From Myxococcota bacterium (lineage in GTDB: Bacteria; Myxococcota; XYA12-FULL-58-9; JALHOP01), in NCBI GenBank assembly GCA_041288095.1, contig JBGGMJ010000127.1, forward strand, positions 1 to 39,839: a stretch of 39,839 nucleotides of DNA, in the 5' to 3' direction. Positions within the stretch are counted from its first letter, which is position 1. Each line of letters opens with the position of its first letter. A program made the position numbers and the translations under genes. The notes beneath the pieces are model-generated. The model was not told the origin of the DNA and did not search any database. It saw nothing but the letters and a program-made list of their open reading frames with translations. Below are positions 1,306 through 39,839 of this stretch, piece after piece.

Positions 1306-1339
1306 CGCGGCTCGGTTGAAATTGCTAAAGAGCCGCGCC

Positions 1340-2308: not shown

Positions 2309-2313
2309 CCCGG

Positions 2314-4414: not shown

Positions 4415-4492
4415 ACAGGCATCGTGGCTTCGAGCCCACACGCTGACCCACCGGCATGTCGTGGTGTCATGATTTTTTGGGCTTTTTCGGCA

Positions 4493-4508
4493 TGGCACGG
4501 ATGCTGCT
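4493..4508 (+). promoter_or_regulatory. Putative sigma54 (-24/-12) promoter
   Basis: TGGCACGGATGCTGCT with exact GG-N10-GC spacing, preceded by T-tracts, just upstream of the DUF1592 gene. Confidence 0.6.
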
Positions 4509-4519
4509 CGCGTGCACCG

Positions 4520-6187: not shown

Positions 6188-7644
6188 GCCCGAGGCCAAT
6201 GACACGTCGTGCGTTTTTGCGGACGGCAGGTGCGCTGACCGTGGCGTTGCCGGCGCTCGAGCTGACGCACGGGAAGGCCTGGGCGCAGGCGCCGGAGAAC
6301 ATCGCCAAGCGCTACGTGGGCTTCTTTTCGCACGGCGGCTACACCACGTCGCGGGGCGTCGATGGCCGCTTGCAATCGATTGGCTCGTTTTTCGGCCACG
6401 ATCTGTGGCGTCCGCCATACGAGACAGAGACCCTGACGACGCTGGGCGAGGAGATGCTGCCGCTCGAAGGCGCGGCGGACAAGCTCCTGATCCTGCGCGG
6501 CATGGTGAATCGCGCGGGGATCGAGCAAGGCGAATACGGCGGCGGGCACGGTTTCGCCAACGTCACCGCGCTCACCTCGAACAATGTCTCGGTGCTCACG
6601 CGTTCGAACGGCGAGACCTATCAGACCGCCGAGGGGCCTTCGATCGATCAGGTGATCTCGGATCGCTTGATGCAACGCACACCGACACCGTTCGCGCGCA
6701 TCGACCTCGCCGTCGACGGTCACAACTACGGCACACCTTTCTTCAGCGCCGCCCGCCAGCCCATCGAAGGGGAAGGGAACGTCCGCACCGCCTTCGATTC
6801 GCTGTTCACCGGCGTCTCGCCCGAGGAACCGTCGCCCGAGATGGAACGCTTGCGCCTGCGCAAGAAGAGCGTCCTCGACGGGGTGCTCGACGGCTTTGCC
6901 ACCTTCAAGCGCAACTTGAGCGTCGCCGACACCCGCCGCGTCGATGCGCACTTCGAGTTCATTCGCGCGCTCGAGCGCCGCATCAACGGGCTCGGACAAG
7001 TCGCCGAATGCACGGTACCGACGCGTAGCGATCCGCGCCCCGCGGAGTTCACGGGGCCGATCATGATCGATCTCATCGTGCACGCGTTCCGCTGCGGCCT
7101 CTCGAACGTCGCGACTTTCAATCTGGCGGACATCACCACGCCGTGGACCACGGCGCCCCTCTCCGACCGCGGCATGGTCGGCTACGACATCGGCCACTCG
7201 CTGCACCACTTCCTGCGCGACCTCGCGCCCGGCGGCGCCAACGACAACGACCGCGACCGCGCCGACTGGCGCACCGAGATGGTCGCGAACCGCCGCTGGC
7301 GCCTCGGCCTCTTCCGCCGCTTGATGGACGGCCTCGCCGAAAGTGGCGACGGGGCCGCCGGCTCGATGCTCGACACCAGCATCATCTACCTCACCAGCGA
7401 GTTCAGCCGCGGTGAGCAGCACACCTGCAACGAGCCGCCGGTGCTCATCGCTGGTGGCGGCGGCGGCACCATCCGCACCGGACGGCAGATCAACTACAAC
7501 GCCGCGGGCGCGGGCACGGGGCCGATGGAGACCGACGCCTCCCTGCACAACCTCTACACGACGTTCCTGCAGGCGTTCGGGGAGACCGACGAGCACTTCG
7601 GCAACGACGATGCTTGGCGCCGGGGGCCGCTCGATTTGACGTAG
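6184..7644 (+). CDS. DUF1552-family Tat-exported protein
   Basis: Twin-arginine signal TRRAFLR, GPSIDQVI, RKKSVLD, SMLDTSIIYLTSEF, PVLIAGGGGG. ATGA overlap with the upstream gene, the usual partner arrangement. Confidence 0.85.
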   Translation: MSPRPMTRRAFLRTAGALTVALPALELTHGKAWAQAPENIAKRYVGFFSHGGYTTSRGVDGRLQSIGSFFGHDLWRPPYETETLTTLGEEMLPLEGAADKLLILRGMVNRAGIEQGEYGGGHGFANVTALTSNNVSVLTRSNGETYQTAEGPSIDQVISDRLMQRTPTPFARIDLAVDGHNYGTPFFSAARQPIEGEGNVRTAFDSLFTGVSPEEPSPEMERLRLRKKSVLDGVLDGFATFKRNLSVADTRRVDAHFEFIRALERRINGLGQVAECTVPTRSDPRPAEFTGPIMIDLIVHAFRCGLSNVATFNLADITTPWTTAPLSDRGMVGYDIGHSLHHFLRDLAPGGANDNDRDRADWRTEMVANRRWRLGLFRRLMDGLAESGDGAAGSMLDTSIIYLTSEFSRGEQHTCNEPPVLIAGGGGGTIRTGRQINYNAAGAGTGPMETDASLHNLYTTFLQAFGETDEHFGNDDAWRRGPLDLT

Positions 7645-12800: not shown

Positions 12801-14309
12801 ATGCGAAATCACCACGTCCGCGTTTACCCGTCGAAAGAGCACCTCCCGAAGGAAAAGCAGCTGGCTTGGGCCATGGCCGAGGTCGCCACCGACCCGGTCG
12901 CAATCGACCCCGCGACCAGCGAGATGATCGTCAACCGCGTCATTGACAACGCCTCGGTGGCCATCGCCGCAGCCAACCGCACCCCGGTCGCCAACGCCCG
13001 CTCGCAAGCCCTGACCCACCCGACGCCCGACGGCGCCACCCTTTTCGGTCTGCCGGAGGGCGTCCGTGTCTCGCCGGAATGGGCGGCCTGGGCGAACGGC
13101 ACCGCGGTGCGCGAGCTCGACTTTCACGACACCTTCCTCGCCGCGGACTACTCGCACCCCGGCGATAACCTGCCGCCGATCCTCGCGGTGGCGCAGCGCC
13201 TCGGCAAGAGCGGCGCGGACGTGATCCGAGGGGCCGCCACCGCCTACGAGCTGCACGTGAACCTGGTCAAGGCGATCTGCCTGCACAAGCACAAGATCGA
13301 TCACATCGCGCACCTCGCGCCGTCCGCCGCGGCGGGCATCGGCACGATGCTGAACCTGTCGACGGACGTCATCTACCAGGCCATCCAGCAAGCCGTGCAC
13401 GTCTCGTTTTCGACGCGCCAGTCGCGCAAGGGCGAGATCTCCTCGTGGAAGGCGCACGCGCCGTCGTGGGCCGGCAAGATCGCCATCGAAGCGGTCGACC
13501 GTGCCATGCGAGGCGAGAAGTCGCCGTCGCCGATCTACGAGGGTGAAGACAGCGTCATCGCCTGGATGCTCGACGGGCCGAAGGCGGAATACAACGTGCC
13601 GCTCCCCGAGAAGGGCGAGGCCAAGCGCGCCATCCTCGACACGTACACCAAGGAGCACAGCGCCGAGTATCAAGCGCAGGCGCTCATCGACCTCGCCTTC
13701 CGCCTCGGTGAGAAGGTCGGCGACGGCTCGAAAGTGAAGAGCATCGTGCTCCACACCTCGCATCACACGCACTACGTCATCGGCACCGGTGCCAACGATC
13801 CGCAGAAGATGGACCCCAAGGCGTCGCGCGAGACCCTCGATCACAGCATCATGTACATCTTCGCGGTCGCCCTGCAGGACCGCAGCTGGCACCACGTCAA
13901 GTCGTACGATCCCGCGCGCGCGCAGCGACCGGACACCGTCGCCTTGTGGCACAAGGTCTCGACCGTCGAGGACGCCGAGTGGACGCGCCGCTACCACGCG
14001 ACCGATCCCAAGGAGAAGGCCTTCGGCGCCAAGGTGGTGGTGACCATGAACGATGGGGCAACGATCACGGACGAGCTCGCTCTCGCGAACGCGAACCCCG
14101 CGGGCGCCAAGCCCTTCAAGCGTCCGGACTACATTCGCAAGTTCGAGACCCTGACCGAGGGCGTGCTGGACAACGCCGAGATCAAGCGCGTCATCGAGCT
14201 GACCCAGCGCCTGCCGCAGCTCGCGGCGGCCGACCTGTCGCGGCTTCACCCGGTGCTGCCGGCCGGCAAGCTCACCCACGCGACCCGCGACACCCGAGGC
14301 ATCTTCTGA
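12801..14309 (+). CDS. prpD: 2-methylcitrate dehydratase (MmgE/PrpD family)
   Basis: [50 protein letters not shown]. Confidence 0.92.
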
Positions 14310-15208
14310 TGTTGTTCGCGAGCGCTGATCCGAAAGCCAAGCGCGCAGCCTTCCGTGCGAAGCTGCGCGCCCCGGGACTCCTGCGATTCCCGGGCGCCTT
14401 CTCGCCGCTGGTCGCCATGATGATCGAGCGGCTGGGGTTCGAAGGCGTCTACATCAGCGGAGCGGTGCTCTCGAACGACCTGGGCTATCCTGACGTCGGC
14501 TTGACGACGTTGAGCGAAGTGGCGCAGCGCGGCCGCGTGATCGCACGCGTCACCGACTTGCCCGCGATCATCGACATGGACACCGGCTTCGGTGAACCGC
14601 TCAACGCCGCCCGCACCGTGCAAGAGCTCGAGGAGATGGGCATCGCCGGCGCGCATCTCGAGGACCAGGTGAATCCGAAGCGCTGCGGCCACCTCGAGGG
14701 CAAGGGCCTCGTCGAAACCGACGCCATGGTGAAAAAGATCGTCGCGGCGTCGAAAGCGAAGCGGGATGCGAACTTCCTCCTCATCGCCCGCACCGACGCT
14801 CGCGCGAGCGAGGGTCTCGACAAGGCCATCGAGCGCGCCAAGGCGTACGTCGACGCCGGCGCCGAGATGATCTTCCCCGAGGCGATGCAAGACGAGAAAG
14901 AGTTCGCGGCGATGCGCAAGGCGGTGAGCGTGCCGCTCCTCGCCAACATGACGGAGTTCGGAAAGTCGAAGCTGCTCGACGCAAAGCAGCTGACCGAGCT
15001 CGGCTACAACGTGGTCATTTATCCGGTGACCACGCTGCGCCTCGCCATGAAAGCGGTCGAAGACGGCCTCAAACAAATCGCCGCCGACGGCACGCAGGAA
15101 GCTCTTCTATCGCGGATGCAGCACCGCAAGGAGCTGTATGATCTGATTCGCTACGACGATTACACGACGTTCGATTCACAGGTCGCGGGCTTTCGCGCCA
15201 AAGAGTGA
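14309..15208 (+). CDS. prpB: 2-methylisocitrate lyase
   Basis: DMDTGFGEP, HLEDQVNPKRCGHL, ARTDA, LANMTEFGKS. TGATG overlap with prpD. Confidence 0.93.
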   Translation: MLFASADPKAKRAAFRAKLRAPGLLRFPGAFSPLVAMMIERLGFEGVYISGAVLSNDLGYPDVGLTTLSEVAQRGRVIARVTDLPAIIDMDTGFGEPLNAARTVQELEEMGIAGAHLEDQVNPKRCGHLEGKGLVETDAMVKKIVAASKAKRDANFLLIARTDARASEGLDKAIERAKAYVDAGAEMIFPEAMQDEKEFAAMRKAVSVPLLANMTEFGKSKLLDAKQLTELGYNVVIYPVTTLRLAMKAVEDGLKQIAADGTQEALLSRMQHRKELYDLIRYDDYTTFDSQVAGFRAKE

Positions 15209-23813: not shown

Positions 23814-24809
23814 GTGACGAAGGGTCAAGTGCTGGTTTCCGTGCTCATCCCGGCGCGCAACGCCGAAGCGACCGTCGAAGCCGCGGTCGCGAGCATGACG
23901 AGTCAGACCCTGCGCGAGCTCGAGGTCGTCGTCGTCGACGATGGTAGCAGCGATCGAACAGCCGCTATCGTCGCGCGCTTGGCCGCGGCGGACGGGCGGA
24001 TCCGTCTCATCCGTTGTGAGGCGCTGGGGCTTACGCCGGCGTTGAACCGCGCCCTGCAAGAGGCGCGGGCGCCATGGCTTGCCCGCATGGACGCCGACGA
24101 CATTGCCTACCCCGAGCGTTTGCAGCGCCAGATGTGTCTCACCACCGAGGCCGACATCATCGGCTGCGGAGTGCGGATCGTCGGGGCTGGCGAAGGCTAC
24201 GCGCGCTACGCCTCCTGGCTGAACGGTCTCGTCACCCACGAGGCGATGATGCGCGAGCGCTTCGTCGAGAGCCCCCTTGCCCACCCCTCGGTGCTGATGC
24301 GCCGCGCGACGGTGCGGGAGCTCGGCGGCTACCGCGACATGGGTTGGGCCGAGGACTACGACCTCTGGTTGCGCGCGGCTCGAGCCGGCGCGCGCTTCGC
24401 CAAGGCGCCACAGGTGCTGCTCGACTGGATCGATCGCGGCGATCGCACGTCACGGGTCGATGACCGCTATGGCGAGGAAGCCTTTTACGCATGCAAGGCG
24501 CATCACCTGCTGCAAGGGCCTCTTGCGGAGAAGCGATGCACCATCTGGGGCGCCGGTCCTGGCGGCACGCGGCTCGGACGCGCGCTGCGCCGGCAAGGCG
24601 TCACCATCACGCGCTACATCGACATCGACCAAAAGAAGATCGGCCAGATGCGTGGAGGCTCGCCTGTGATCGCCGTAGCGGACATCGATCGCTCGATAGA
24701 CGTCCCGATCCTCGCGGCGGTCGCGGTCCGCGGGGCGCGCGAGCTGGTGCGCGCCGAGCTGGTCTCACGCGGGTTCGTCGAGGCCACCGACTTCTGGTGT
24801 GTCGCGTAG
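23814..24809 (+). CDS. Glycosyltransferase family 2 with C-terminal Rossmann-like segment
   Basis: VSVLIPARN, VVDDGSSD, ARMDADD, AEDYDLWLR, TIWGAGPGG. AGGAG precedes GTG 23814. Confidence 0.88.
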   Translation: MTKGQVLVSVLIPARNAEATVEAAVASMTSQTLRELEVVVVDDGSSDRTAAIVARLAAADGRIRLIRCEALGLTPALNRALQEARAPWLARMDADDIAYPERLQRQMCLTTEADIIGCGVRIVGAGEGYARYASWLNGLVTHEAMMRERFVESPLAHPSVLMRRATVRELGGYRDMGWAEDYDLWLRAARAGARFAKAPQVLLDWIDRGDRTSRVDDRYGEEAFYACKAHHLLQGPLAEKRCTIWGAGPGGTRLGRALRRQGVTITRYIDIDQKKIGQMRGGSPVIAVADIDRSIDVPILAAVAVRGARELVRAELVSRGFVEATDFWCVA

Positions 24810-25997
24810 GGCGCGAGAGAGCGCCTCGTAGTCCGGGCGGTCGTTGTAGAGCTGCGCCGATACACGGAACCAGCGGCGCTCGGGCGACGGCCACGCGAAA
24901 ATCGGCACCTCGATGGCGTGCTCCGCGAAGAGCTTGGCGCCGAGCGGGTCGAAGCGCGACGCGGGCTGCTCACTCGCGGCGGCAAGATGCTCGGGCAGGG
25001 GCAAGGTCACCAGCGCGCCGACCATGCTCTCGGGCACCGGAGGCGTGAGACTCAGCGTCTCGCAGAGATGAGCGCGTGCCGCGAGCGCCATCGCATGGTT
25101 ACGGGCGCGCAACTCCGGCCAGCCGCCGGGGAGCAAGCTCGCCATCGTCTCGATGGCCTTGGGGATGCACAAGAAGCCGGTGCAGTCGTAGGTGCCGGGC
25201 CAGTCGTGGTCCCGACGAAAACCCGAGGTGCCGGGGAAGCCGCGAGCGATGACCAGCGGCTGAAAGCCCTTCTGCCGATCCGGGCGCACGTGGACGAACG
25301 CCGTCCCCTTCGGACTGCATAACCACTTATGCAAGTTGCCGACGTAGTAAGCCGCGCCGATCGCGTTCACGTCGAGCTCGAGCATGCCGGTCGCGTGCGC
25401 ACCGTCCACGAGGACGTCGATGCCCCGCGCCTCGAGCTTGCGGACGAGCTTCTCCACCGGCATGACGACGCCGGTCGGGCTGCTGACGTGATCGATGAGC
25501 ACGAGCCGCGTTTGCGAGCTGGTCGCGTCGACGATTCGCTCGATGACGGCGTCGCTATCGCGGAGAGGCAGCGGCACATCGGCGACCACGAGCCTGAGAT
25601 CCTGGCGTTCCGCGAGGTGCTCGAGCGCCATGCGGCACGAGGGGTAGTCGTGGTTGGTGGTGACGATCTCGTCCCCGGGCTCGAGATCGAGGTTCTTCAG
25701 CACGAGATTGACGCCGGTCGTGGCGTTGGTGACGAACGCAAGATCGTCCGCGCCGGCGTTGACGAAGCTCCCGAGCGCCTGACGCGCGCGCTCGAGCTCG
25801 GGGCCGACGTAGTGCAGGAAAAACTGCGACGGCTCGCGCTCCATGCGGGCGCGCAGCTCGTTCTGATGCTCCAAGACGGCGCGCGGCGTCGCCCCGAAAG
25901 CCCCATGATTGAGGTAGCGGACCTTCGGATCCAGCATCCAGAAGTCGCGCAATTTGGGCATTGACACAGGCCAAACCGGCTCAGAGGTCATTTTCAT
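24765..25997 (-). CDS. PLP-dependent class V aminotransferase (isopenicillin N epimerase / cysteine desulfhydrase-like)
   Basis: YLNHGAFGA, NATTGVN, LVDGAH, GNLHKWLCSPKG (PLP lysine), RVSAQLYN. Start may be ATG 25961. Confidence 0.85.
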   Translation of the reverse strand: MKMTSEPVWPVSMPKLRDFWMLDPKVRYLNHGAFGATPRAVLEHQNELRARMEREPSQFFLHYVGPELERARQALGSFVNAGADDLAFVTNATTGVNLVLKNLDLEPGDEIVTTNHDYPSCRMALEHLAERQDLRLVVADVPLPLRDSDAVIERIVDATSSQTRLVLIDHVSSPTGVVMPVEKLVRKLEARGIDVLVDGAHATGMLELDVNAIGAAYYVGNLHKWLCSPKGTAFVHVRPDRQKGFQPLVIARGFPGTSGFRRDHDWPGTYDCTGFLCIPKAIETMASLLPGGWPELRARNHAMALAARAHLCETLSLTPPVPESMVGALVTLPLPEHLAAASEQPASRFDPLGAKLFAEHAIEVPIFAWPSPERRWFRVSAQLYNDRPDYEALSRALRDTPEVGGLDEPA

Positions 25998-27347: not shown

Positions 27348-28169
27348 TCAGGCGCCTATCTGCTGCAGCAGGGCCTGCAGCTGGCCGAAGCCGCGGAGGC
27401 GAAAACCATAGCGTGGATCTTCCGGCCAGGCACCGGCTCCACCGAGCAGCAAGGTCACGCCGTGCTCTTGGCATGCGGGCGCCAGTCGTTCGACCTGGCG
27501 AGCGAGCAGCGAGAGGTCGGTGGAAGTCGCCGACGCCGAGAGCGCCACCATGCGAACACCGCCGGCGCGGACGAAACGCGTGAGCTCCTCGGTAGGCGTG
27601 TTGCGGCCGGCCCAGCGCGGCAGCCAGCCGGCCTCGCGCAGGCAAAGCTCGAGCAACGACAAGCCGAGCGTGTGATCTTCGTTCTCGGCGGTGGCGAGCA
27701 AGCACCGTGGTGCGTCATCGCGGATGGGCAAGGACTCGACCAGCATGGTGAGCCCGCGCTGCAGGACCTCGCTTGCCAGATGCTCCTCCACGACCGTCAA
27801 GCGGCCCTCCGACCACCTTCGGCCCGCGGCCTCGAGCACTTGGCCTATCGCCTCGGCGACGCGCCACCAGCAGCCACGAGCCGCGCGCTCGGTGAGCAAG
27901 GCCGCTTGCACTTCGTAGGCGCCGACATCGTTGGTGAGCAGCGTGAGCCAGCGGTCGATGTGCTCCGGCTGCGCGACGCCGCCCTTCTCTAGTCCGTTAC
28001 GGCGGGCAAACGCCAGGACTGTCGCGCGCGCGAAACGCCGGTGGCCGCCCAGCGTCTTCACACATTCGAGCTCGCCGCTCTGGGTCCAACGTTTGACCGT
28101 CGATGGGCCGACCCCCAAGGTGAGCGCGACCTCGCCGCTGGTCAAAAGCTCCAGGGAATCCTCGCCCAT
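27348..28169 (-). CDS. MerR/excisionase-type HTH + cobalamin-binding regulator (CarH/LitR-like)
   Basis: HTH LTSGEVALTLGVGPSTVKRW..KTLGGHRRF; W-x9-EH (WSEGRLTVVEEH); ExHxxG (EDHTLG); C-terminal LLGG. Confidence 0.85.
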   Translation of the reverse strand: MGEDSLELLTSGEVALTLGVGPSTVKRWTQSGELECVKTLGGHRRFARATVLAFARRNGLEKGGVAQPEHIDRWLTLLTNDVGAYEVQAALLTERAARGCWWRVAEAIGQVLEAAGRRWSEGRLTVVEEHLASEVLQRGLTMLVESLPIRDDAPRCLLATAENEDHTLGLSLLELCLREAGWLPRWAGRNTPTEELTRFVRAGGVRMVALSASATSTDLSLLARQVERLAPACQEHGVTLLLGGAGAWPEDPRYGFRLRGFGQLQALLQQIGA

Positions 28170-30984: not shown

Positions 30985-31770
30985 ATGGGATTTCTGGAAG
31001 ATACGATTCTCGAGCCGAGCCGCAAGCGTCCTGTCCTCGTCGACTTTTGGGCGCCTTGGTGCGGCCCGTGCCGAACGCTGGGTCCGGTCCTCGACCGGGT
31101 CGCGGCGAAGAACCCGACGCGCTTCACCCTCGTGAAAGTCGACACCGATCAGCACCAGGACATCGCGGCGCGCTTCCGCGTCCAGAGCATCCCCGCGGTG
31201 AAGCTGTTCGATCAAGCGAAGGTCATCGCCGAGTTCGTTGGCGCGCTGCCGGAGCGCGAAGTCCTTGCGTGGCTCGACCGCGTGTTGCCAACCGACGAAG
31301 GTCGCGCGCTCGCCGCGGCGAAGGAGGCCATGCACAAGGGAGACCGGGCCGCCGCCCTCGCGGCACTGCACGGGCGCATCCACGAGGATACGAAGTCCTC
31401 GGAGGCACGCGCCTTGTACGCGGTCCTCGCCTACTTCGAGCACCGCGAGCACGCGCTGGCGCTGGCGGCCACCGTCCGCGAAGGCGACGTCGGCTTCGAT
31501 CTGGCGAGCGCCGTGACCGAGCTGGATGGGTTGGATGACAAGGTGGAGGGAAAGCCCGAAGCGGTTGCGAGCTACCAGCGCGGGATCGCGAGCTTCAAGG
31601 CCGCGAACTTCGGCGAGGCAGCCGCCGCCTGGATCGAGTCCATGAAGCTCTCGCGGCAGGTGGCGCAAGACGGCGCCAAGCGCGCGCTCATCGCCCTGTT
31701 CAAGCTCCTCGGCGAACAAGACCCCGTCACCCTCGAGTACCGCCGCGCCTTCGCGTCCGCGCTCTACTGA
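30985..31770 (+). CDS. Thioredoxin-TPR chaperedoxin (YbbN/CnoX-like)
   Basis: VDFWAPWCGPC, VQSIPAV, helical C-terminus ending YRRAFASALY. Confidence 0.88.
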   Translation: MGFLEDTILEPSRKRPVLVDFWAPWCGPCRTLGPVLDRVAAKNPTRFTLVKVDTDQHQDIAARFRVQSIPAVKLFDQAKVIAEFVGALPEREVLAWLDRVLPTDEGRALAAAKEAMHKGDRAAALAALHGRIHEDTKSSEARALYAVLAYFEHREHALALAATVREGDVGFDLASAVTELDGLDDKVEGKPEAVASYQRGIASFKAANFGEAAAAWIESMKLSRQVAQDGAKRALIALFKLLGEQDPVTLEYRRAFASALY

Positions 31771-32393
31771 GCAGGGAGAAGCGCGGCGCGCACCGGCGAG
31801 GCGTCGCCCTCGGCGAGCCGAAGTGGCAAGGCGATCAGCGTGTACGCCCCCGCTGCCACATGGGCGAGGACGATGGCTTCGAGCACCGCCATGTCGTGGA
31901 ACTGCACGGCGTTGTGCGCCAGCAGCTCGCGGTCGGCGAAGGGGTCGACCGAGGGAGTGTCGATGCCGATGAGGCGGACGCCTCGCGCCGCGAGGTAATC
32001 GACGAGCTCCGGCGACAAGCTCGCGAAGTCGGTGTTGAAGACGTTCGGGTCGGGGAAGGTACCGGTCTTGAGCAAGACGCGGGGCGAAGTGATGCGAGCG
32101 CCCGCGAGATGGCTCGACGAGATGCGCTCACCCCGAGCAACGTTCACGTGCACGACGTCGCACGCACCGTAGTAGAGCTCGAGGTCCCGCTCGCCGATCG
32201 CCGCGCCGTGGCGACCATAATGGCTCGGCGCATCGGCATGAGCGCCGATGTGCAGCGTCGTGGTGATGGCCGACAAGGTGAGGTTGTCGCCCTTCTTCAT
32301 GTCGAGCGCCACCGCCCGCGAAAACGGCACATCGCCGGGCCAGACCGCCGTAGCGGACGAGAGCACCGGCGAGATGTCGATGAGCTTCGTCAC
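31764..32393 (-). CDS. kynB: Cyclase family protein, kynurenine formamidase-like
   Basis: IDISP..AVWPGD, HIGAHADAPSH, GIDTPSVDP, DASPVRA. GTG 32393 overlaps the upstream stop (GTGA). Confidence 0.8.
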   Translation of the reverse strand: MTKLIDISPVLSSATAVWPGDVPFSRAVALDMKKGDNLTLSAITTTLHIGAHADAPSHYGRHGAAIGERDLELYYGACDVVHVNVARGERISSSHLAGARITSPRVLLKTGTFPDPNVFNTDFASLSPELVDYLAARGVRLIGIDTPSVDPFADRELLAHNAVQFHDMAVLEAIVLAHVAAGAYTLIALPLRLAEGDASPVRAALLPAQ

Positions 32394-33289
32394 CGGTCGA
32401 GAACGTTGCGGTCGCCGCGGTAGACCTCGACATCGTCTTCGTCGAACTCCACGTTGGTGGCGCCCCGCTCCACCGGCTTCAACGACACCACAGCCGAGCC
32501 GGTACCCCAGATGGGCTCGTACGCCAGCACACGACCCTCGTAATCGTTGTTCTGACCCATGAGGGCCGCGAGCCACCAGACCGCCTTGAACCTCTGGTCG
32601 GCGTTCGCCTCGCGGAAGAACTGGCGCGCCAGCTGTGACACGTCTTCGAGACGTCCGTTCCCCAGGAACTCGAGGATCTTCCGGTTCCACTCGTCGTCTT
32701 TCAGCGACGAGATGCGGTCGCTCTTCGGCTCGATGAACTCGGTGACCATGCGGTTCGAGAGCTGCGTGACCGCGATAGCGACCACCTTCTTACCGAGTTG
32801 CATGGCGGCATCGCGCGCCGCCTTGCCGAGGACGATGGTTTCGGCGCGGTCCGCGTACATGTTGCACGAGACCACGCACGCGGGGATGCGGTTCTCCGGA
32901 TTGAGCAGCTTCAAGGCCGTGATGGTGCCCGTGTCGATTGGAAAGCCTTTGTACGCCACGGTCCGCGCCGTCAGGCCGCGCTTCTTGGCCGCGGCTTCGT
33001 ATGCCGCGGCGTACTCGGCATCGATGGAGAAGCTGTACGGGATCTCGCCCAAGTCATGCCATTCGTGATCGACGTGCACCCAGGTTGGCGAAGGGTCCGC
33101 CTGGATCTGGTGGCCGATCACCGACAGCCACTTGGTGCTGTAGATCATGATGAGATCGGCATCCGACGCGGCGATCTCCTCGCGCACCGTGCCGAACGCA
33201 TCGGCGAGCTTGCGATAGCCCGGCGCCGCATCGGGTGTGAGCAACGGCTGCGGCTTTCCCGGAACGATGTAACCACGCACGACGCTCAT
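32390..33289 (-). CDS. amnA: 2-aminophenol 1,6-dioxygenase alpha subunit-like (LigB fold, non-catalytic)
   Basis: YSTKWLSVIGH, HVDHEWHDLG, GFPIDTGT, YEPIWGTGSAVV. ATG 33289 overlaps the beta-subunit stop. Confidence 0.8.
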   Translation of the reverse strand: MSVVRGYIVPGKPQPLLTPDAAPGYRKLADAFGTVREEIAASDADLIMIYSTKWLSVIGHQIQADPSPTWVHVDHEWHDLGEIPYSFSIDAEYAAAYEAAAKKRGLTARTVAYKGFPIDTGTITALKLLNPENRIPACVVSCNMYADRAETIVLGKAARDAAMQLGKKVVAIAVTQLSNRMVTEFIEPKSDRISSLKDDEWNRKILEFLGNGRLEDVSQLARQFFREANADQRFKAVWWLAALMGQNNDYEGRVLAYEPIWGTGSAVVSLKPVERGATNVEFDEDDVEVYRGDRNVLDR

Positions 33290-34170
33290 GCGGCCTCCAT
33301 GTCCCAGCTGACGACAGCGTTGCCGGTACCGATGACCGTGCCGTAGGCGTGCACCTCGGCCGGATGCGTGGGGAAGCCCATCGCCGACAACAAGAACGTG
33401 AGCGATCCCGCCCGCGCCTCGCTCACCGACTGGTCGATGAAGTCGGGCATCTCGTCGAGGAGCTCGCGCGCCTTCCCGGCCTTGAGCAGCTTCACCACGT
33501 GCATGTCCCAGAGGTACTGGTTGTGGTTGTAGATGCGCTCGTACGACATGTCCTCGGGGACACCGGGCTCGGTCGTGAAGTGGCGGTGCGACAGCGAGCA
33601 CGAGGAGATGACGAGCGCCCTGCGCCCGAGCTTCTCGACGGCGCGCCGCGCGGCCTGCCCCAAGGCGATCATCTGGCGGTCGCCGACGTCGTTGCCGAAG
33701 TAGTCATAAGCCGCGTTAGCGGACACGCCGACGATGGGCTTGTCCCAGTCGGGGTTCACCATGTGGCAGGCGGTCACGGTGCCGTAGTCGATGCGGAACT
33801 TGGGGTTGCGCATCATCTTGGTGACCAGGCCCTGCGAGGCCGCTTCAGCGCACATGGCCTCGGCGAGCGGGACGTCGACCTTCAGGTCGTAGTGGAAGCG
33901 AAAGAGGTTGGGAAAGATCGGATCGACCGACAAGCTCTTGAAGTGCGGCACACCCAGGAAATGGTGGCCAACCACGGTCCGCCAGTGGGGCGAGTGGACG
34001 ATGATGACGTCGTAATCTTTCTTCTTCAGCTTGGCGCGAAGCGCGTCATAGCCCCAGCGCAGGACTTCCCAGCCGCCCTCGGCGCGCGGCTCGTTCTGCT
34101 TGGGGTTGTCGGCGTACACCAGGTGCGGCGGGTGCGGGGCGAGAGCCCCCATGACGATGCGTCCACTCAT
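33286..34170 (-). CDS. amnB: 2-aminophenol 1,6-dioxygenase beta (catalytic) subunit
   Basis: LAPHPPHLVY..NEPRAEGGWEVLRW, HSPHW, SVDPIFPN, MMRNPKFRIDYGT, LSHRHF, YGTVIGTGNAV closely follow AmnB/CnbCb. Fe-ligand His/His/Glu and catalytic Tyr/His positions appear present. Confidence 0.88.
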   Translation of the reverse strand: MSGRIVMGALAPHPPHLVYADNPKQNEPRAEGGWEVLRWGYDALRAKLKKKDYDVIIVHSPHWRTVVGHHFLGVPHFKSLSVDPIFPNLFRFHYDLKVDVPLAEAMCAEAASQGLVTKMMRNPKFRIDYGTVTACHMVNPDWDKPIVGVSANAAYDYFGNDVGDRQMIALGQAARRAVEKLGRRALVISSCSLSHRHFTTEPGVPEDMSYERIYNHNQYLWDMHVVKLLKAGKARELLDEMPDFIDQSVSEARAGSLTFLLSAMGFPTHPAEVHAYGTVIGTGNAVVSWDMEAA

Positions 34171-35603
34171 AAGGCCACACAAACGTTACGGGCCTCGCTG
34201 AAGGTCTCGAGCGAATACACTCCGCCTTCGCGGCCGAGGCCACTGTCTTTCATTCCACCGAAGGGTACGCGCAGATCGCGCATCATCCAGGTGTTCACCC
34301 AGACCATGCCGCTGTCGATGGCGGCGGCGACCCGATGCGCGCGTGACAGGTCGCGGGTCCATACCGACGCGGCAAGCCCGTAGCGCACTTCGTTGGCCAT
34401 GCTGATGGCGCGAGCGTCGTCGTCGAATGGATGCACGGTGACGACCGGCCCGAAGATCTCCTCGGTCGCCGCGCGCGCCTTCGACGACAGGCCGGTGACG
34501 ATGGTCGGCTCTAGGAAGAAGCCGTTGGCGAGCGCCCCCGCGAGCTTTGGTCTGCCACCGCCATGAACGATCTTACCGCCCTCTTCCTGCGCCAGCTTGA
34601 TGTAGCCTTCGACCTTCTCGCGGTGCGCGGCGGACACCAGAGCACCGAGCTGCGTCGACGGGTCTTTGGGATCACCGACGCGCATCTTGGCGAGACGGTC
34701 GACCATGCCCTGCACGACCTCGTCGTGAATCGACTGCTCGACCAACACGCGTGAGCCGCACAGGCAGATCTGTCCCTGATTGGTGAACCCCGAGCGCACC
34801 GCGCCTTCGATGGCTTTTGCTCGGTCGGCGTCGGCGAAGATGAGCGTCGGGTTCTTACCGCCGAGCTCGAGCGACGTCTTGCGGAAGGAAGCAGCGGTGG
34901 CCTCGGCGACCTTGGCGCCGGTCGACGTCCCGCCGGTGAACGAGACGAGCTTCACATCGCGATGGCGGACCAGCGCGTCGCCAGCTTCCGCGCCGTAACC
35001 GTGCACGACGTTGAACACGCCCGGGGGCAAGCCGACATCACGCACGATGTCCGCTAACGCGTGCGCGGTCAGCGGCGTGAGCTCGCTCGGCTTGCAGACG
35101 ACGGTGTTGCCCATCGCCAATGCGGGCGCGGCCTTCCACGACAGCAGGTACAACGGCAGGTTCCACGGCGTGATCAGCGCGCAGACCCCGACCGGCTTGC
35201 GCAACGTGTAGTTGATGGCGGACTGGTCGACGGGGTGAAAACCCGGATTGTCGTGCAACACCGCGTTGGCGAAGAAGCGAAAGTTCGCGATGGCACGCGG
35301 GATGTCCATGCTGGCCGCCAGCGCGACCGGCTTCCCCGTGTCGAGCGACTCGAGGTTCGTGAGCTCCTCGGCGCGGGCTTCGAGCTTCTCGGCGATGCGC
35401 AGCAGATACCGCGAGCGCTCCTGCGTCGAAAGGCGCGCCCAACCTGGCTGGGCCTCGCGCGCCGCGGCCACGGCGGCGTCCACTTCGGCTTGGCCGGAGC
35501 GCGGTACCCAAGCGATCACCTCACCCGTCGCGGGCGAGACGTTGTCGATGCTCGCGGCGGTGCTCTTCCACTCGCCACCGATGAAGTTTCGAATCTCACG
35601 CAT
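34167..35603 (-). CDS. 2-aminomuconate/2-hydroxymuconate semialdehyde dehydrogenase (AmnC/ALDH8-like)
   Basis: DIPRAIANFRFFA, PWNLPLYLLSWK, LELGGKNP, NQGQICLCGSR, EEIFGPV, WMMRDLRVPFGG. Confidence 0.88.
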   Translation of the reverse strand: MREIRNFIGGEWKSTAASIDNVSPATGEVIAWVPRSGQAEVDAAVAAAREAQPGWARLSTQERSRYLLRIAEKLEARAEELTNLESLDTGKPVALAASMDIPRAIANFRFFANAVLHDNPGFHPVDQSAINYTLRKPVGVCALITPWNLPLYLLSWKAAPALAMGNTVVCKPSELTPLTAHALADIVRDVGLPPGVFNVVHGYGAEAGDALVRHRDVKLVSFTGGTSTGAKVAEATAASFRKTSLELGGKNPTLIFADADRAKAIEGAVRSGFTNQGQICLCGSRVLVEQSIHDEVVQGMVDRLAKMRVGDPKDPSTQLGALVSAAHREKVEGYIKLAQEEGGKIVHGGGRPKLAGALANGFFLEPTIVTGLSSKARAATEEIFGPVVTVHPFDDDARAISMANEVRYGLAASVWTRDLSRAHRVAAAIDSGMVWVNTWMMRDLRVPFGGMKDSGLGREGGVYSLETFSEARNVCVAL

Positions 35604-35612
35604 AGAACGACC

Positions 35613-36788
35613 TCACAGCGCGTTACCGCCGCCCTTCATCGAGTCCCAAGACGACGAACCAAAGCCTTCACCCGGCCCGCTGATGCCGAACTGCTCCGAC
35701 TGCGCTTGCCAGTCGTAGTACCAACGGTCGCGATCCGGATCCCACTCGTCCCAGGTCGGAATCCTCTCGAGCGCCGAGAGCCGGTCCTTGGGGACGACGC
35801 CGGGCACGATGAACGCCTTCTGCTTGTAGAGCGGATACGGATTGCGCAGCTCGAAGCCGAGCACACCCAGCACGGCGCGCGCGATGTACCAGGTCGCCTG
35901 CGGGTTCCACCCATGAGCGATCTTGATCATGACGCCGAGACCATCCGGGTAGTCGGGATGAATGATGCTCAAGGCGAGCAAACCGTCGGCGCCTTCCTTG
36001 GCGATGACCTTGCCGCCGCACGCCTTCATGACCGTGCTGTCCAGGCGGTTGAAGCCGCCGACGAGATCCGGATGCTCGATCATCGAGGCCCAGATCCAAT
36101 CTTCGTCACGCGTCGCCGCGAGTCCGGCGAAGACCTTGGCGAGCTCGCCGACGGTCATCGACACGGTGGGAAAGCCGTCACCATCGCGCGCGACCCGCAG
36201 CGGCTGCCAGTCGGTCCCGAGAAAGCGGCGGACCTGCTGCATGTACGCCTGGAAGAAGGGATGGCGCGGCAGCGTGTAACCGACGCGGCTCCAGTTCTTC
36301 AAACGGCAGCCCCTCAAGATGGCGGCGTGCTGCCCCGAGCTGTTGTTGTACCAGCGGCGCGGCCGGCGGACCTGCCGCCCGAACTGCACCAGCGGCACAT
36401 CGAGCGGTGTCTGCATGAGACCCCACTCGGACGGGTCGAGCAACGACTGCGCGGCGGCGACATGCTCGGCGGTGCCGTTGTGCGAGGCGACCGCGATAGC
36501 ACGCTGCTGTGAATTGGTGATCGGCTCGAGATCCTTCGCGAAGACCTTGAGCATCACCGGCTTCATGCAGCTGCGGCCGTAGCAGAGGACGTTGCCGCCG
36601 AAGGAATGGATGATCTCGTTGCCCGATGCCCAGGCGACCGCGCCGTGGATGGTGGTCTCGGAGACACCGTTACGCCGATAGTCGACCAACGGCTGCCATT
36701 CGACGTCACGCCCAGTGGGGATGCGCGCGTCGGAATCACCGAGTGGTGAGGTCGGGTAAACGTCTCGGCCGACGGTAGGCATGGTCAT
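35613..36788 (-). CDS. Class 3 (Rhizobium-type, asparaginase II) asparaginase-like hydrolase with altered metal site
   Basis: RSCMKP, ASHNGTAEH, NNSSGQHA, RDGDG, AKEGADG. ATG 36788 overlaps the upstream stop. Confidence 0.78.
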   Translation of the reverse strand: MTMPTVGRDVYPTSPLGDSDARIPTGRDVEWQPLVDYRRNGVSETTIHGAVAWASGNEIIHSFGGNVLCYGRSCMKPVMLKVFAKDLEPITNSQQRAIAVASHNGTAEHVAAAQSLLDPSEWGLMQTPLDVPLVQFGRQVRRPRRWYNNSSGQHAAILRGCRLKNWSRVGYTLPRHPFFQAYMQQVRRFLGTDWQPLRVARDGDGFPTVSMTVGELAKVFAGLAATRDEDWIWASMIEHPDLVGGFNRLDSTVMKACGGKVIAKEGADGLLALSIIHPDYPDGLGVMIKIAHGWNPQATWYIARAVLGVLGFELRNPYPLYKQKAFIVPGVVPKDRLSALERIPTWDEWDPDRDRWYYDWQAQSEQFGISGPGEGFGSSSWDSMKGGGNAL

Positions 36789-37993
36789 TTGCGTTCGACC
36801 TTCGGGATGACGGCCTCGACGAAGTGCTTCATGTTGTCGATGACGCGCGCGTTGTCGTGGTTGAAGAAGTCGAACCAAAGCATCAAGCGGTCGTCGGGGT
36901 GAAAGCGCGTCTTCATCTGCTCGGCGATGGTGTCGGGATCCCCGATCAAGGCGTTGTCGGCCGCGTTGTCGACCTTCTTGGGATCCAGCGTGCCTTCCAG
37001 AGCGGTCCAATAGGCACCGAGCGCGTGCTTGGCGGCCTCCTGCGCCTTCGCTTTGTCCTTGTCGATGAACACGAAGGTGGTGCGCGGCATGTACCAGCGC
37101 TTCCATTCGCCGCCATTCGGATGAAACGCTTGCTTCAAACGTACGTGCGTTTGCTCGATCACTTCCGGCGCGGTGATCGAGAGGTTGAAGACGTGCGCGG
37201 GCATGAACTTGTTGGCGAGCTCTTGCGACGCGGCGTCGTGGCTGCCGACGACTAGCTGCAACAGCCTCCGGTCGAAGTGCTGCGGGATGATCTTCAGCTG
37301 CTCGAAGGTCCAGCGGCGCGGCAGCACGAACGCGTCGCCCTGCTCCTCGAAGTTATCGGCGCGCGCCGCGGTGACCACCCTCTGCCAGTCCTCGTCCTTG
37401 CGGAAGAGCGAGCGCGTCAGGAGCGGCTGCGTGACCTCGTCGCTCGACAGGACGTCACCGCGCAGCAAGCGGCAGAAGACCTCGACCGCTTCGGCGAACA
37501 CGAGGCCCTTGACCACCGGCCACGCCGCCTTCTCGGTGGCGTTGCGCGGCATGATGCCATAGGCGCGGTTCATGAAGTCGAAGCGTCCGGCCGAAAAGCC
37601 GACGTTGAGCTTGCGCTTCTCGCCGGCGCGCAGCCCGTGCAGCGCCGTGAAGTAAGCGATACGCTCGGCCGCCGCGACGGGTCCGCCATTGCAGACGATG
37701 TTCATGACGGCGCTGCCGACCTCGATCGTCTTGGTGCGCGCGAACACTTGATGCGCGAGCTGCGTGATGTCGCAGTTCAAACCGACCTCACCGCGCCAGT
37801 GAGGAATGACGGGCTCGCGGTTCTTCTTTTGTACCTCGCTCGAGAGATGCGACTCGGCGACCCACGCGGTGCCGAAGCCCAAGGCGTCCGCCGCCTCGAC
37901 CTGCGCGAAGAAGCTCTTGAACATCTCGGCTTCGCTGGGCGCCTCGCCATCGACGGGGGTCTGACTGATCGAGAAGAAGACGTCGTAGCGCAT
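36785..37993 (-). CDS. Luciferase-like (LLM class) flavin-dependent monooxygenase
   Basis: ADALGFGTAWVAESH, RTKTIEVGSAV, AERIA, LIGDPDTIAEQM, NMKHFVEAVIP. Confidence 0.85.
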   Translation of the reverse strand: MRYDVFFSISQTPVDGEAPSEAEMFKSFFAQVEAADALGFGTAWVAESHLSSEVQKKNREPVIPHWRGEVGLNCDITQLAHQVFARTKTIEVGSAVMNIVCNGGPVAAAERIAYFTALHGLRAGEKRKLNVGFSAGRFDFMNRAYGIMPRNATEKAAWPVVKGLVFAEAVEVFCRLLRGDVLSSDEVTQPLLTRSLFRKDEDWQRVVTAARADNFEEQGDAFVLPRRWTFEQLKIIPQHFDRRLLQLVVGSHDAASQELANKFMPAHVFNLSITAPEVIEQTHVRLKQAFHPNGGEWKRWYMPRTTFVFIDKDKAKAQEAAKHALGAYWTALEGTLDPKKVDNAADNALIGDPDTIAEQMKTRFHPDDRLMLWFDFFNHDNARVIDNMKHFVEAVIPKVERK

Positions 37994-38004
37994 GGCCAAA
38001 ACCC

Positions 38005-38787
38005 CTAGATGCTCTGGAGACGGCCGCCGTCGGCCGCGAGACTGACACCACGGATGAAGGAAGCGAGCGGTGAGCCCAAGAAGACGATGGCGGCGGCGAT
38101 CTCGTCCGGCGTGCCCAGCCGCTTTTCGGGGACGGAGGCGAGCCACTCGCCCAGCACCTGCTCACCCGAGATACCCCGGCGCTTGCCGGCACCCTCGCGG
38201 AGCTCGAGCATGCGCTCGGTGTCGGTGTAGCCCGGCAACACGTTGTTGACGGTGATGCCCGGCGGCAGCTCGCGCGACAGGGTCTTCGCCCAGCCGGCGA
38301 CGGCCGCGCGACAGATGTTGGAGACCCCGAGCCCGGCGATGGGCTCCTTCACCGAGGTGGAGACGACGTTGATGATGCGCCCGTAGCCGGCGCTGACCAT
38401 GCCGGGGACGACGACCTTGGTGATGGCGTGCGGCGTGAGCACGAGGCGGCCCATGGCCTTCATGATGGCGGCCTCGTCGGCTTCGATGAGCGGCCCCCCA
38501 GGCGGACCGCCGGTGTTGTTGACCAAGACGTGCACGACCCCGCGCGCAACGACGCTCTTCACCTTCTCGATGGTCGGTTCGCGCTCGTCGAGGTCGGCAA
38601 CCAAGGTGTCGACGCCGGCCGCGCCCGCGGCGGTGAGCTCCTTGGCGAGCTCGTCGAGCGCCTCTTTACGGCGGGCGACGATGGTGAGCGTCGCCTTGCC
38701 GGCGGCAAAGCCAAAGGCAGCGGCGCGACCGATGCCGCGGCTCGCGCCGAAGAGCAACACGTGCTTCCCGCCGAAGTCCATCTGCAT
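38005..38787 (-). CDS. Short-chain dehydrogenase/reductase
   Basis: GASRGIG, VLVNNTGGPPGG, GRIINVVS, ITVNNVLPG, ADGG; the catalytic YxxxK is replaced by SNICR. Confidence 0.88.
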   Translation of the reverse strand: MQMDFGGKHVLLFGASRGIGRAAAFGFAAGKATLTIVARRKEALDELAKELTAAGAAGVDTLVADLDEREPTIEKVKSVVARGVVHVLVNNTGGPPGGPLIEADEAAIMKAMGRLVLTPHAITKVVVPGMVSAGYGRIINVVSTSVKEPIAGLGVSNICRAAVAGWAKTLSRELPPGITVNNVLPGYTDTERMLELREGAGKRRGISGEQVLGEWLASVPEKRLGTPDEIAAAIVFLGSPLASFIRGVSLAADGGRLQSI

Positions 38788-38799
38788 GCCGCCCGCGGT

Positions 38800-39435
38800 C
38801 TATCCCGTCAGGATGGTCTCGGCAATCTCTCGCGGGTGGCCAACCAGGTGGTCGGCCCCCGCCTGCTCGAGCTCGTCCCGGCCACGGATCCCATAGGTGC
38901 AGCCGATGGTCCGGGCCCCGTAGGCCTTGCCGGTCATGACGTCGACGGCGCTGTCGCCGACCATCCACACCTTGCCGAAGGAGCGTCCCCCGACCAGGTG
39001 GGCGATGACGTCCGGCGACGGCTTCTTGAAGGCGAAGGTGTCGCCACCAATGGCCACCTCGAAACGCGCGAGCATGCCGAAGTGCTCGAGCATCTGGGTC
39101 ACGAAGCGCTCCGACTTGTTGCTGGCGACGGCGAGCGGCCGCGGGCCCAGGGCGTCGAGCATGGCCCCGACGCCTTCGTAAGGCTTCGAGGTGTCGAACA
39201 TCATCGTCGCGTAACGCTCCCGGTAGCGGCGCTTGAGGTCGGCGTGCTGCGCGCCCTTGGGCAGCGCCTCCTGGATGAGGTGGTCGAGCCCCTCGCCAAT
39301 CCAGCCGCGCACCGTCCCGGCGTCGACCGGGTTGCCGCCCAGGTCCACCCGCGCCGCCGACAACGCCGCGGCGATATCGCCCAGGGTATCCACGAGCGTC
39401 CCGTCAAAATCGAAAATCACCAGCTCGTTCGCCAT
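38800..39435 (-). CDS. HAD-superfamily phosphatase (phosphoglycolate phosphatase-like)
   Basis: FDFDGTLVD, VASNK, KKPSP, MVGDSAVD. Confidence 0.88.
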   Translation of the reverse strand: MANELVIFDFDGTLVDTLGDIAAALSAARVDLGGNPVDAGTVRGWIGEGLDHLIQEALPKGAQHADLKRRYRERYATMMFDTSKPYEGVGAMLDALGPRPLAVASNKSERFVTQMLEHFGMLARFEVAIGGDTFAFKKPSPDVIAHLVGGRSFGKVWMVGDSAVDVMTGKAYGARTIGCTYGIRGRDELEQAGADHLVGHPREIAETILTG

Positions 39436-39444
39436 CACGTCCCC

Positions 39445-39489
39445 AAAAGCAAAGGCCCCCGCTCACTTCGCTCAGAGTGAACGGGGGCC
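39445..39489 (-). terminator. Rho-independent terminator after the TonB-dependent receptor
   Basis: Minus strand GGCCCCCGTTCACT-loop-AGTGAGCGGGGGCC followed by TTTGCTTTT. Confidence 0.8.
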
Positions 39490-39512
39490 CCTATACGCGC
39501 TACGCGCTGCTT

Positions 39513-39839
39513 TTAGAACGTGTAACGCAAACCGAGCTGCGCGCTGAGCGGCGCCTGGTACTGCGTCGGCTGGCGGTAGTTCGGATTCACGCGCGCCGGC
39601 ACACCGTCGATGGTGCGCAGGTGGCGGAGATCCGAGCGACGGCCGTTGACGATCGGGTCGACGAAATCGACCGTGTAGCGATCGTCGACCTGCGTGGCGC
39701 CCTGATTGTTCGTGACGTTGAAGACGTCGACCGTGAGCTCGAACGCCTGCAGCGCCTGGATGTTATAGCGGAAGCCGGCATGGACATCGGCGCTCCAGAT
39801 CCACGACGTGCGACCACCCTCGCCGCGGCGAATGAGGAA
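39513..39839 (-). CDS. TonB-dependent outer-membrane receptor, Oar-like (C-terminal fragment; absent from the ORF track)
   Basis: Manual translation of an open frame from the window end: ..GRTSWIWSADVHAGFRY..ELTVDVFNVTN..NPNYRQPTQYQAPLSAQLGLRYTF*, ending in a beta-barrel terminal Phe. Confidence 0.85.
   Translation of the reverse strand, partial: FLIRRGEGGRTSWIWSADVHAGFRYNIQALQAFELTVDVFNVTNNQGATQVDDRYTVDFVDPIVNGRRSDLRHLRTIDGVPARVNPNYRQPTQYQAPLSAQLGLRYTF

Follow-up and report, generated by a model that had tools for sequence, protein, structure and literature searches.

A conserved, tryptophan-linked gene cluster that may carry kynurenine to 2-aminomuconate by way of free 2-aminophenol

Results

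The operon

The DNA analysed here (the window) is a 39,839-nucleotide contig, JBGGMJ010000127.1, from a Myxococcota bacterium (assembly GCA_041288095.1). Its minus strand carries, at 31764-38787, seven tightly packed genes in which the two subunits of a 2-aminophenol dioxygenase-type enzyme stand beside a putative kynurenine formamidase, and it is this cluster, a possible route of tryptophan catabolism, that concerns us. In gene order, the seven are as follows:

38005..38787, minus strand: short-chain dehydrogenase/reductase (SDR), 260 aa; Pfam adh_short, with adh_short_C2 at 8.5e-34
36785..37993, minus strand: divergent luciferase-like flavin monooxygenase (LLM), 402 aa; Pfam Bac_luciferase (PF00296), 1.9e-11
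35613..36788, minus strand: Asparaginase_II-like Ser-Lys hydrolase, 391 aa; PF06089, 3.1e-45
34167..35603, minus strand: 2-aminomuconate-6-semialdehyde dehydrogenase-type aldehyde dehydrogenase (ALDH), 478 aa; Pfam Aldedh
33286..34170, minus strand: AmnB-like, 2-aminophenol 1,6-dioxygenase beta (catalytic) subunit, 294 aa; Pfam LigB (PF02900)
32390..33289, minus strand: AmnA-like, 2-aminophenol 1,6-dioxygenase alpha (non-catalytic) subunit, 299 aa; Pfam LigB (PF02900)
31764..32393, minus strand: KynB-like, putative kynurenine formamidase, 209 aa, GTG start; Pfam Cyclase

The junctions, taken in the same order, are an 11-bp gap, an ATGA overlap, a 9-bp gap, two further ATGA overlaps and a GTGA overlap. 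The LLM stop codon is thus overlapped by the start of the asparaginase-like gene (ATGA), and KynB is translationally coupled to AmnA (GTGA). A first-pass annotation of this DNA had described seven co-directional genes joined by such overlaps and gaps, and the coordinates and junctions agree with it exactly.

Conservation of the cluster

The asparaginase-like protein was scanned against a species-level genome collection, where at least 594 stretches encode it; 80 loci were kept for neighbourhood analysis. They come from Bdellovibrionota, Myxococcota, Planctomycetota, Acidobacteriota, Krumholzibacteriota, Latescibacterota and Eisenbacteria, together with 24 archaeal records, mostly Poseidoniia (MGII/MGIII). 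All six core genes (SDR, LLM, asparaginase-like, ALDH, AmnB and AmnA) lie within 5.8-10.8 kb in 44 of the 80 loci, a recurrence that puts the arrangement far beyond chance and bears out the earlier expectation of a conserved cluster. Most of the remaining 36 loci end at contig ends. True variants are those missing the SDR (L004, L033, L042, L049 and L076), those missing AmnBA (L054, L062 and L075), and L057 and L061, which have AmnB, AmnA and the asparaginase-like gene only. L061 belongs to Sulfidibacter corallicola M133. Across the cluster, the window and L001 are 87% identical at the nucleotide level.

Three gene orders were found: the first is that of the window and is common to archaea and several bacterial phyla; the second, in Bdellovibrionota, places the asparaginase-like gene after AmnA; and in the third KynB and LLM are transcribed divergently. 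In a maximum-likelihood tree built for the asparaginase-like protein, they correspond to the three principal clades; the tree is a quick one (80 of the 81 sequences, one fragment dropped), with the careful search unfinished. One record titled Flammeovirgaceae (Bacteroidota; L013) shares its gene order with the archaea, and in the tree its asparaginase-like protein falls inside the Poseidoniia clade beside L009 and L010; it is probably a mis-binned contig.

The ring-cleavage module

The best PDB matches of the AmnB-like protein are 3vsg_B (2-amino-5-chlorophenol / 2-aminophenol 1,6-dioxygenase beta; 5.7e-109), 8ihg_A (4e-107) and 7txy_B (1.3e-100). In the alignment with 3vsg_B, positions 13, 62, 129, 195 and 251 hold the same residues as CnbCb (H, H, Y, H and E). 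We take His13, His62 and Glu251 to be the Fe(II) ligands and His195 and Tyr129 to be the catalytic His and Tyr, following the CnbC and AmnB literature. For the AmnA-like protein, the top PDB match is a dioxygenase alpha subunit (7txy_A, 1.2e-54). The AmnA-like protein shares 28% identity with the beta subunit, whose His13, His62 and His195 it replaces by Gly, Lys and Asn, and it adjoins AmnB in all 62 loci that have both. AmnBA is most likely, from these alignments, a bona fide 2-aminophenol-dioxygenase-type pair with beta encoded before alpha, and is predicted to cleave 2-aminophenol to 2-aminomuconate semialdehyde. The ALDH that precedes it has as its seven best solved relatives 2-aminomuconate 6-semialdehyde dehydrogenases without exception (4u3w at 1.4e-150, 4i1w and 7bzv among them), and scores 610.1 bits with TIGR03216, whose cutoff is 693.25.

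An ORF of the RidA/YjgF family is present in 60 of the 80 loci (checked with Pfam and NCBIfam on four). It either stands by itself, downstream of AmnA or of the asparaginase-like gene, or, in 13 loci, is an in-frame continuation of AmnA:

Apparent AmnA-RidA fusions: L003, L004, L007, L008, L020, L033, L038, L042, L049, L063, L065, L074, L076

A validated bacterial 2-aminomuconate deaminase has been described as a member of this family, IPR006175/PF01042 (bioRxiv 10.64898/2026.06.05.730449). No RidA was found in the window, L001 or L002; tblastn of the window gave no RidA match, and AmnA here has no RidA domain. In three proteins from the database (P0241-P0243, 719-736 aa), AmnA is joined to the asparaginase-like hydrolase. 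The two kinds of fusion together suggest that the non-catalytic alpha subunit may be a scaffold for neighbouring pathway enzymes.

The link to tryptophan

A homologue of tryptophan 2,3-dioxygenase (TDO) is found in 28 of the 80 loci, 18 archaeal and 10 bacterial, as counted by blastp with the ORF of L034 and with a representative checked by Pfam (PF03301, 2.9e-57); it stands before the SDR, after the asparaginase-like gene, or in divergent orientation to the cluster. KynB occurs in 15 loci, forming a divergent pair with LLM in L048, L056 and L078, and in 6 archaeal loci an alpha/beta hydrolase lies between ALDH and AmnB. The KynB-like protein of the window has solved kynurenine formamidases as its best PDB matches (4cog at 2.7e-46, 4cob and 4cz1, to 1.6e-42) and scores 216.8 bits over the full length of the arylformamidase model TIGR03035, whose cutoff is 223.05. 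The connection to tryptophan that the first-pass annotation had drawn is supported by these linkages, in several positions and orientations.

We note that 16 archaeal loci, L029 (7227-7958) among them, have a 243-aa Formyl_trans_N-like gene after RidA, with M48 peptidase and MoCF-like genes after it in turn. KynB and the alpha/beta hydrolase are both missing from most of these loci. It is speculative that the Formyl_trans_N-like gene handles the formyl group of N-formylkynurenine.

Classical kynurenine-pathway enzymes

Pfam scans of the 35 window ORFs found no kynU, kmo, nbaC or ACMSD and none of the lower-pathway genes of amn operons (4-oxalocrotonate decarboxylase, hydratase, aldolase and deaminase), as had been said of the window before. 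The four kynurenine-pathway families are equally missing from 237 neighbour ORFs (16 + 150 + 71) of the 80 loci, none of which matches Aminotran_5 (kynureninase), FAD_binding_3, 3-HAO or Amidohydro_2. No decarboxylase, hydratase or aldolase family recurs in these neighbour ORFs either, and of lower-pathway functions the relatives add the RidA-type gene only. The neighbour scan covered ORFs that overlap no assigned gene and lie within 3 kb of the cluster, or farther away if their family was seen in two or more loci; its second batch did not take in 35 singletons of 100-149 aa inside that 3-kb limit, and a threshold of E <= 1e-12 applied to the batch of 71.

An Aminotran_5 gene elsewhere in the window (24765-25997) was considered as a kynureninase and rejected. 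The models that it matches best are SufS, PvdN and EgtE, each scoring far short of its cutoff, and kynureninase models are absent from its 21 listed matches (E <= 1e-5).

The monooxygenase and its reductase neighbour

A sequence search of the PDB gave no usable match for the LLM, a search of the ESM Atlas returned its own family alone, and its more than 5,000 homologues carry generic names only. The AlphaFold2 model is a TIM barrel with a predicted local distance difference test (pLDDT) score of 91.1. LLM structures fill the top matches of a fold search with this model, bacterial luciferases (8cbb and 1luc) being the nearest; the type II Baeyer-Villiger monooxygenase (BVMO) 3,6-diketocamphane monooxygenase (4uwm) is at rank 29, and the identity to any solved LLM found in this way is 13-17%. 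We propose that the LLM may be a kynurenine BVMO.

Residues 140 to 186 of the SDR include no tyrosine, and S143, N157, R160 and K168 are invariant in 26 orthologues. Asn157 and Arg160 stand where the Tyr and Lys of the canonical motif, Ser...Tyr-x3-Lys, would be expected. The closest solved structures are uncharacterised SDRs (5va8, 9.9e-45). The SDR adjoins the LLM in 55 of the 56 loci with both genes, a pairing as tight as that of AmnA with AmnB. Because of this position, and because the canonical catalytic tyrosine is missing, a role as terminal reductase is uncertain; the SDR may be either an NAD(P)H-dependent partner (flavin reductase) of the LLM or a reductase of a product derived from 2-aminomuconate.

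The asparaginase-like hydrolase

Across phyla and domains, a great many proteins share 72-80% identity with the asparaginase-like protein, among them ones from Myxococcota, Planctomycetota and Latescibacterota. The best solved relative of the asparaginase-like protein is the Rhizobium etli class-3 asparaginase ReAIV (8cly, 6.9e-15). The equivalents of Arg47, Ser48, Lys51, Ser80 and Lys263 of ReAV (R72, S73, K76, S102 and K264) are invariant in all 81 sequences, which keeps both Ser-Lys tandems of the ReAV type together with the arginine. In ReAV, alanine mutants of each of the five are reported to be inactive, Ser48 is described as the nucleophile that forms a beta-acyl-enzyme, and Arg47 as the anchor of the substrate alpha-carboxylate (PMC12292245). 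The zinc site of ReAV (Cys135-Lys138-Cys189) is not kept, the window protein having Ser150, Gln153 and Asp204. The two cysteine positions co-vary, with Ser and Asp in 62 of the 81 sequences (the window protein included) and Cys and Cys in the other 19; the Lys138 position is Q, H, E or L and never K. A conserved Trp/Asp-rich C-terminal extension of about 80 residues (about 313-391) lies beyond the Pfam domain and is absent from the ReAIV alignment. From the retained residues, we propose that the protein may be a beta-aspartyl aryl ester/anilide hydrolase that would release L-aspartate and 2-aminophenol.

Neighbouring genes and the rest of the window

One further gene lies close to the cluster on the same strand:

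38800..39438, minus strand: HAD-family, phosphoglycolate-phosphatase-like gene; Pfam HAD_2, 1.3e-29; PRK13222, 143 bits against a cutoff of 225

Its 3' end is 12 bp before the SDR start, and it may be co-transcribed with the operon. A homologue stands at this place in L001 and L002 only among the 80 loci, and the gene is outside the conserved cluster. On the downstream side, the cluster is bounded by a convergent thioredoxin-TPR gene. A promoter and terminator scan of 31000-39839 gave nothing above shuffled background.

Elsewhere in the window, a plus-strand gene at 3251-4414 scores 455 bits with the N-methyl-L-tryptophan oxidase equivalog NF008425, whose cutoff is 257; it is tryptophan-related and about 27 kb from the cluster. 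The plus strand also carries a run of DUF1501, DUF1592/1588/1595/1585 and DUF1552 genes at 1-7644, with a deoxyhypusine-synthase-like gene at 1316-2308, and, at 12801-15208, an MmgE/PrpD-family gene followed by one of the phosphoenolpyruvate-mutase/isocitrate-lyase family, a pair that resembles the methylcitrate cycle. On the minus strand, 27348-28169 encodes a MerR-type helix-turn-helix domain fused to B12-binding domains, that is, a CarH-like light- or B12-responsive regulator.

Discussion

We suggest, with a confidence that we would put at about even, that the cluster is a tryptophan/kynurenine catabolic operon that reaches 2-aminomuconate through free 2-aminophenol and so bypasses KMO, kynureninase, 3-hydroxyanthranilate dioxygenase and ACMSD. 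Kynurenine, or 3-(2-aminobenzoyl)alanine, is an aryl ketone. In the scheme that we favour, KynB would first deformylate N-formylkynurenine, made by a TDO that would be encoded elsewhere in this genome and is encoded in the cluster in many relatives. The LLM, as an FMN-type (flavin mononucleotide) enzyme, would then insert oxygen between the ring and the side-chain carbonyl by Baeyer-Villiger chemistry, with a flavin peroxide and migration of the aryl group; the reducing power would probably come from the atypical SDR that adjoins it. The product would be the 2-aminophenyl beta-ester of L-aspartate, which might undergo an O-to-N acyl shift to N4-(2-hydroxyphenyl)-asparagine. Ester and anilide are both beta-aspartyl derivatives, with the kind of bond that Ser-Lys hydrolases of the asparaginase type cut, and the asparaginase-like protein would split either into L-aspartate and 2-aminophenol. 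AmnBA would open the ring to give 2-aminomuconate semialdehyde, and the ALDH would oxidise this to 2-aminomuconate. Deamination would fall to the RidA-family protein in most relatives; in the window, which has no RidA gene, it would be spontaneous or encoded elsewhere. Deformylation may come before or after oxygenation. This order of the first two steps, what the LLM and the hydrolase act on, and the part played by the SDR are inferred from the gene identities, the linkages and the retained residues described above.

The attraction of Baeyer-Villiger oxygenation followed by beta-aspartyl hydrolysis is that, with the same genes, every conserved gene has a step and no kynureninase is needed. It also explains why an 'asparaginase' should be the most conserved member of a ring-cleavage cluster. 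A larger claim can be built on it, namely that this is a third kynurenine route, in which an LLM BVMO and a re-purposed hydrolase of the class-3 asparaginase fold are followed by AmnBA, ALDH and RidA; that it is carried by a mobile cluster in at least 594 species-level genomes (among them those of marine Poseidoniia MGII/MGIII, Bdellovibrionota, Myxococcota, Planctomycetota and Acidobacteriota); and that it is the natural function of the 'xenobiotic' aminophenol dioxygenase. We regard this larger claim as tentative and as falling slightly short of an even chance. Literature searches, which covered few subscription journals, found no description of such a route, a result that is provisional.

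Several observations weigh against our proposal. We found no precedent for a Baeyer-Villiger reaction on kynurenine, and the fold search does not discriminate BVMOs, since luciferases, RslO1, SsuD, RutA and F420 enzymes score alike. The cluster has no canonical flavin reductase, unless the SDR fills that role. LLM and the asparaginase-like gene, which would act in succession, are adjacent in only 45 of the 64 loci that have both. KynB or another formamidase candidate occurs in only 21 of the 80 loci, and the window has no TDO. Kynureninase or KMO may be encoded elsewhere in the carrier genomes, as our scans covered the cluster neighbourhoods. Finally, the AmnA-asparaginase and AmnA-RidA fusions share one position and can also be read as carrying two alternative deaminases; as the window lineage (the window, L001 and L002) has no RidA, a deaminase role for the asparaginase-like protein stays conceivable there.

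These last two points also speak for the scheme of the first-pass annotation, in which kynurenine or a derivative is hydroxylated on the ring by the LLM, giving a substituted o-aminophenol (such as 3-hydroxykynurenine), AmnBA and the ALDH act on it, the asparaginase-like protein deaminates or hydrolyses the product, and the SDR reduces it towards 2-oxoadipate. The conservation of the cluster and its linkage to TDO and KynB fit that scheme equally. We nevertheless consider it unlikely. Ring hydroxylation would leave the alanyl side chain without an enzyme to remove it, the cluster having none to strip an alanyl or aspartyl side chain from ring-cleaved 3-hydroxykynurenine, and AmnB is very close to enzymes that act on small 2-aminophenols. 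As a 2-aminomuconate deaminase, the asparaginase-like protein was down-weighted because RidA co-occurs with it in 60 of the 80 loci, so that the two are not alternatives; moreover, it retains the Ser-Lys apparatus of an acyl-transfer hydrolase and the arginine for the alpha-carboxylate. The SDR, with no canonical catalytic tyrosine, tracks the LLM and not the lower pathway. The conserved cluster and the tryptophan link of the first-pass annotation therefore stand, and the roles that it gave to the LLM and the asparaginase-like protein are probably wrong. Its suggestion of a natural role for the AmnBA dioxygenase is supported as well: a conserved cluster tied to tryptophan and lacking the classical enzymes would provide one.

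It is also conceivable, if distinctly improbable, that the core cluster serves to break down a different natural compound, an N-aryl one or an aminophenol, and that TDO and KynB lie nearby only because the routes converge on 2-aminomuconate. This would account for the 41 of 80 loci that have no TDO, KynB or alpha/beta hydrolase in the sequence examined, and for the variants that keep AmnB, AmnA and the asparaginase-like gene only (L057 and L061) or lack AmnBA (L054, L062 and L075). However, short contigs account for many of the loci that have no TDO, TDO has settled in three different cluster positions in both domains, and in the window KynB is translationally coupled to AmnA. We give very little weight to the remaining possibility, that an unlinked kynureninase makes anthranilate, which the LLM oxidatively decarboxylates to 2-aminophenol with the asparaginase-like protein as an accessory amidase: 2-aminophenol would still feed AmnBA and the ALDH, and scans limited to neighbourhoods leave room for an unlinked gene, but no kynureninase-family ORF is among the 237 neighbours of loci of which 28 have TDO, we know of no LLM that performs decarboxylative hydroxylation, and it would be left unexplained why a protein more conserved than any other in the cluster (72-80% identical across domains) should be a mere accessory.

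If our proposal is right, a much-studied pathway of amino acid catabolism has a new branch, in which three enzymes replace four textbook ones and the side chain is recovered as aspartate, not as alanine and CO2. The natural upstream source of 2-aminophenol was stated to be unknown in a 2023 paper on the ARO microcompartment (PMC10470539), and the route would answer the question raised there of what supplies AmnBA-type dioxygenases in nature. Functions would follow for two generically named groups, more than 5,000 LLM and more than 1,500 'asparaginase' homologues scored, with new chemistry for the class-3 asparaginase fold and two candidate new enzyme activities. It would also bear on the recycling of tryptophan by abundant marine heterotrophic archaea and by predatory bacteria.

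Comparison with known systems

The nearest relatives of the ring-cleavage module are the amn, cnb and nba operons (AmnBA, AmnC and AmnD) and the actinobacterial ARO microcompartment locus. These share with our cluster a two-subunit LigB-type dioxygenase encoded beta then alpha, with a gene of the 2-aminomuconate semialdehyde dehydrogenase type before or after it, and, in most relatives of the cluster, a RidA-type deaminase. Unlike them, the cluster has no genes for 4-oxalocrotonate decarboxylase, hydratase, aldolase or acetaldehyde dehydrogenase; it adds the LLM, the atypical SDR and the asparaginase-like hydrolase, and is linked to TDO and KynB. The hosts also differ, since amn, cnb and nba belong to degraders of pollutants (nitrobenzene and aminophenol), whereas the hosts of the cluster are predators, oligotrophs and marine archaea.

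With the classical kynurenine pathway (TDO, KynB, KMO, KynU, HAAO, ACMSD, AMSDH and AMD), the cluster shares both ends, a start with TDO and a predicted kynurenine formamidase and a finish with a predicted 2-aminomuconate semialdehyde dehydrogenase and a RidA-family 2-aminomuconate deaminase (bioRxiv 10.64898/2026.06.05.730449). The middle is different: KMO, kynureninase, HAAO and ACMSD were not found in the window or the scanned neighbourhoods, and the LLM, the hydrolase and AmnBA are there instead. The side chain, which leaves the classical pathway as alanine and CO2, would here leave as aspartate.

The logic of the proposed route resembles that of the hap pathway of Pseudomonas fluorescens ACB, in which an aryl ketone is turned by a Baeyer-Villiger reaction into an aryl ester, the ester gives a phenol, and a ring-cleaving dioxygenase and a semialdehyde dehydrogenase follow. 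The BVMO there is of type I, a single-component flavoprotein and not an LLM, the hap esterase and dioxygenase come from other families, and the substrate is not an amino acid. That substrate, 4-hydroxyacetophenone, is described as being degraded via 4-hydroxyphenyl acetate and hydroquinone, with a semialdehyde dehydrogenase acting later (PMC3727088).

Of the two enzymes for which new activities are proposed, the hydrolase shares with ReAIV and ReAV of Rhizobium etli (PF06089) the fold family and the residues Arg47, Ser48, Lys51, Ser80 and Lys263. It differs from them in having no Cys135-Lys138-Cys189 zinc site, in its C-terminal extension and in its setting among genes of aromatic catabolism. 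The LLM shares with type II BVMOs and bacterial luciferase the TIM-barrel LLM fold, as judged from the predicted model, for which luciferases rank at the top and 4uwm at 29; the points of difference are that it has no sequence match in the PDB and is only 13-17% identical to any solved LLM. Diketocamphane monooxygenases are described as flavin-dependent two-component monooxygenases (PMC6352141); that they have a luciferase-like fold rests here on the 4uwm match in the fold search. The cluster as a whole thus combines two known kinds of system, the kynurenine pathway and aminophenol meta-cleavage, and the activities of the LLM and of the hydrolase are its candidate novelties.

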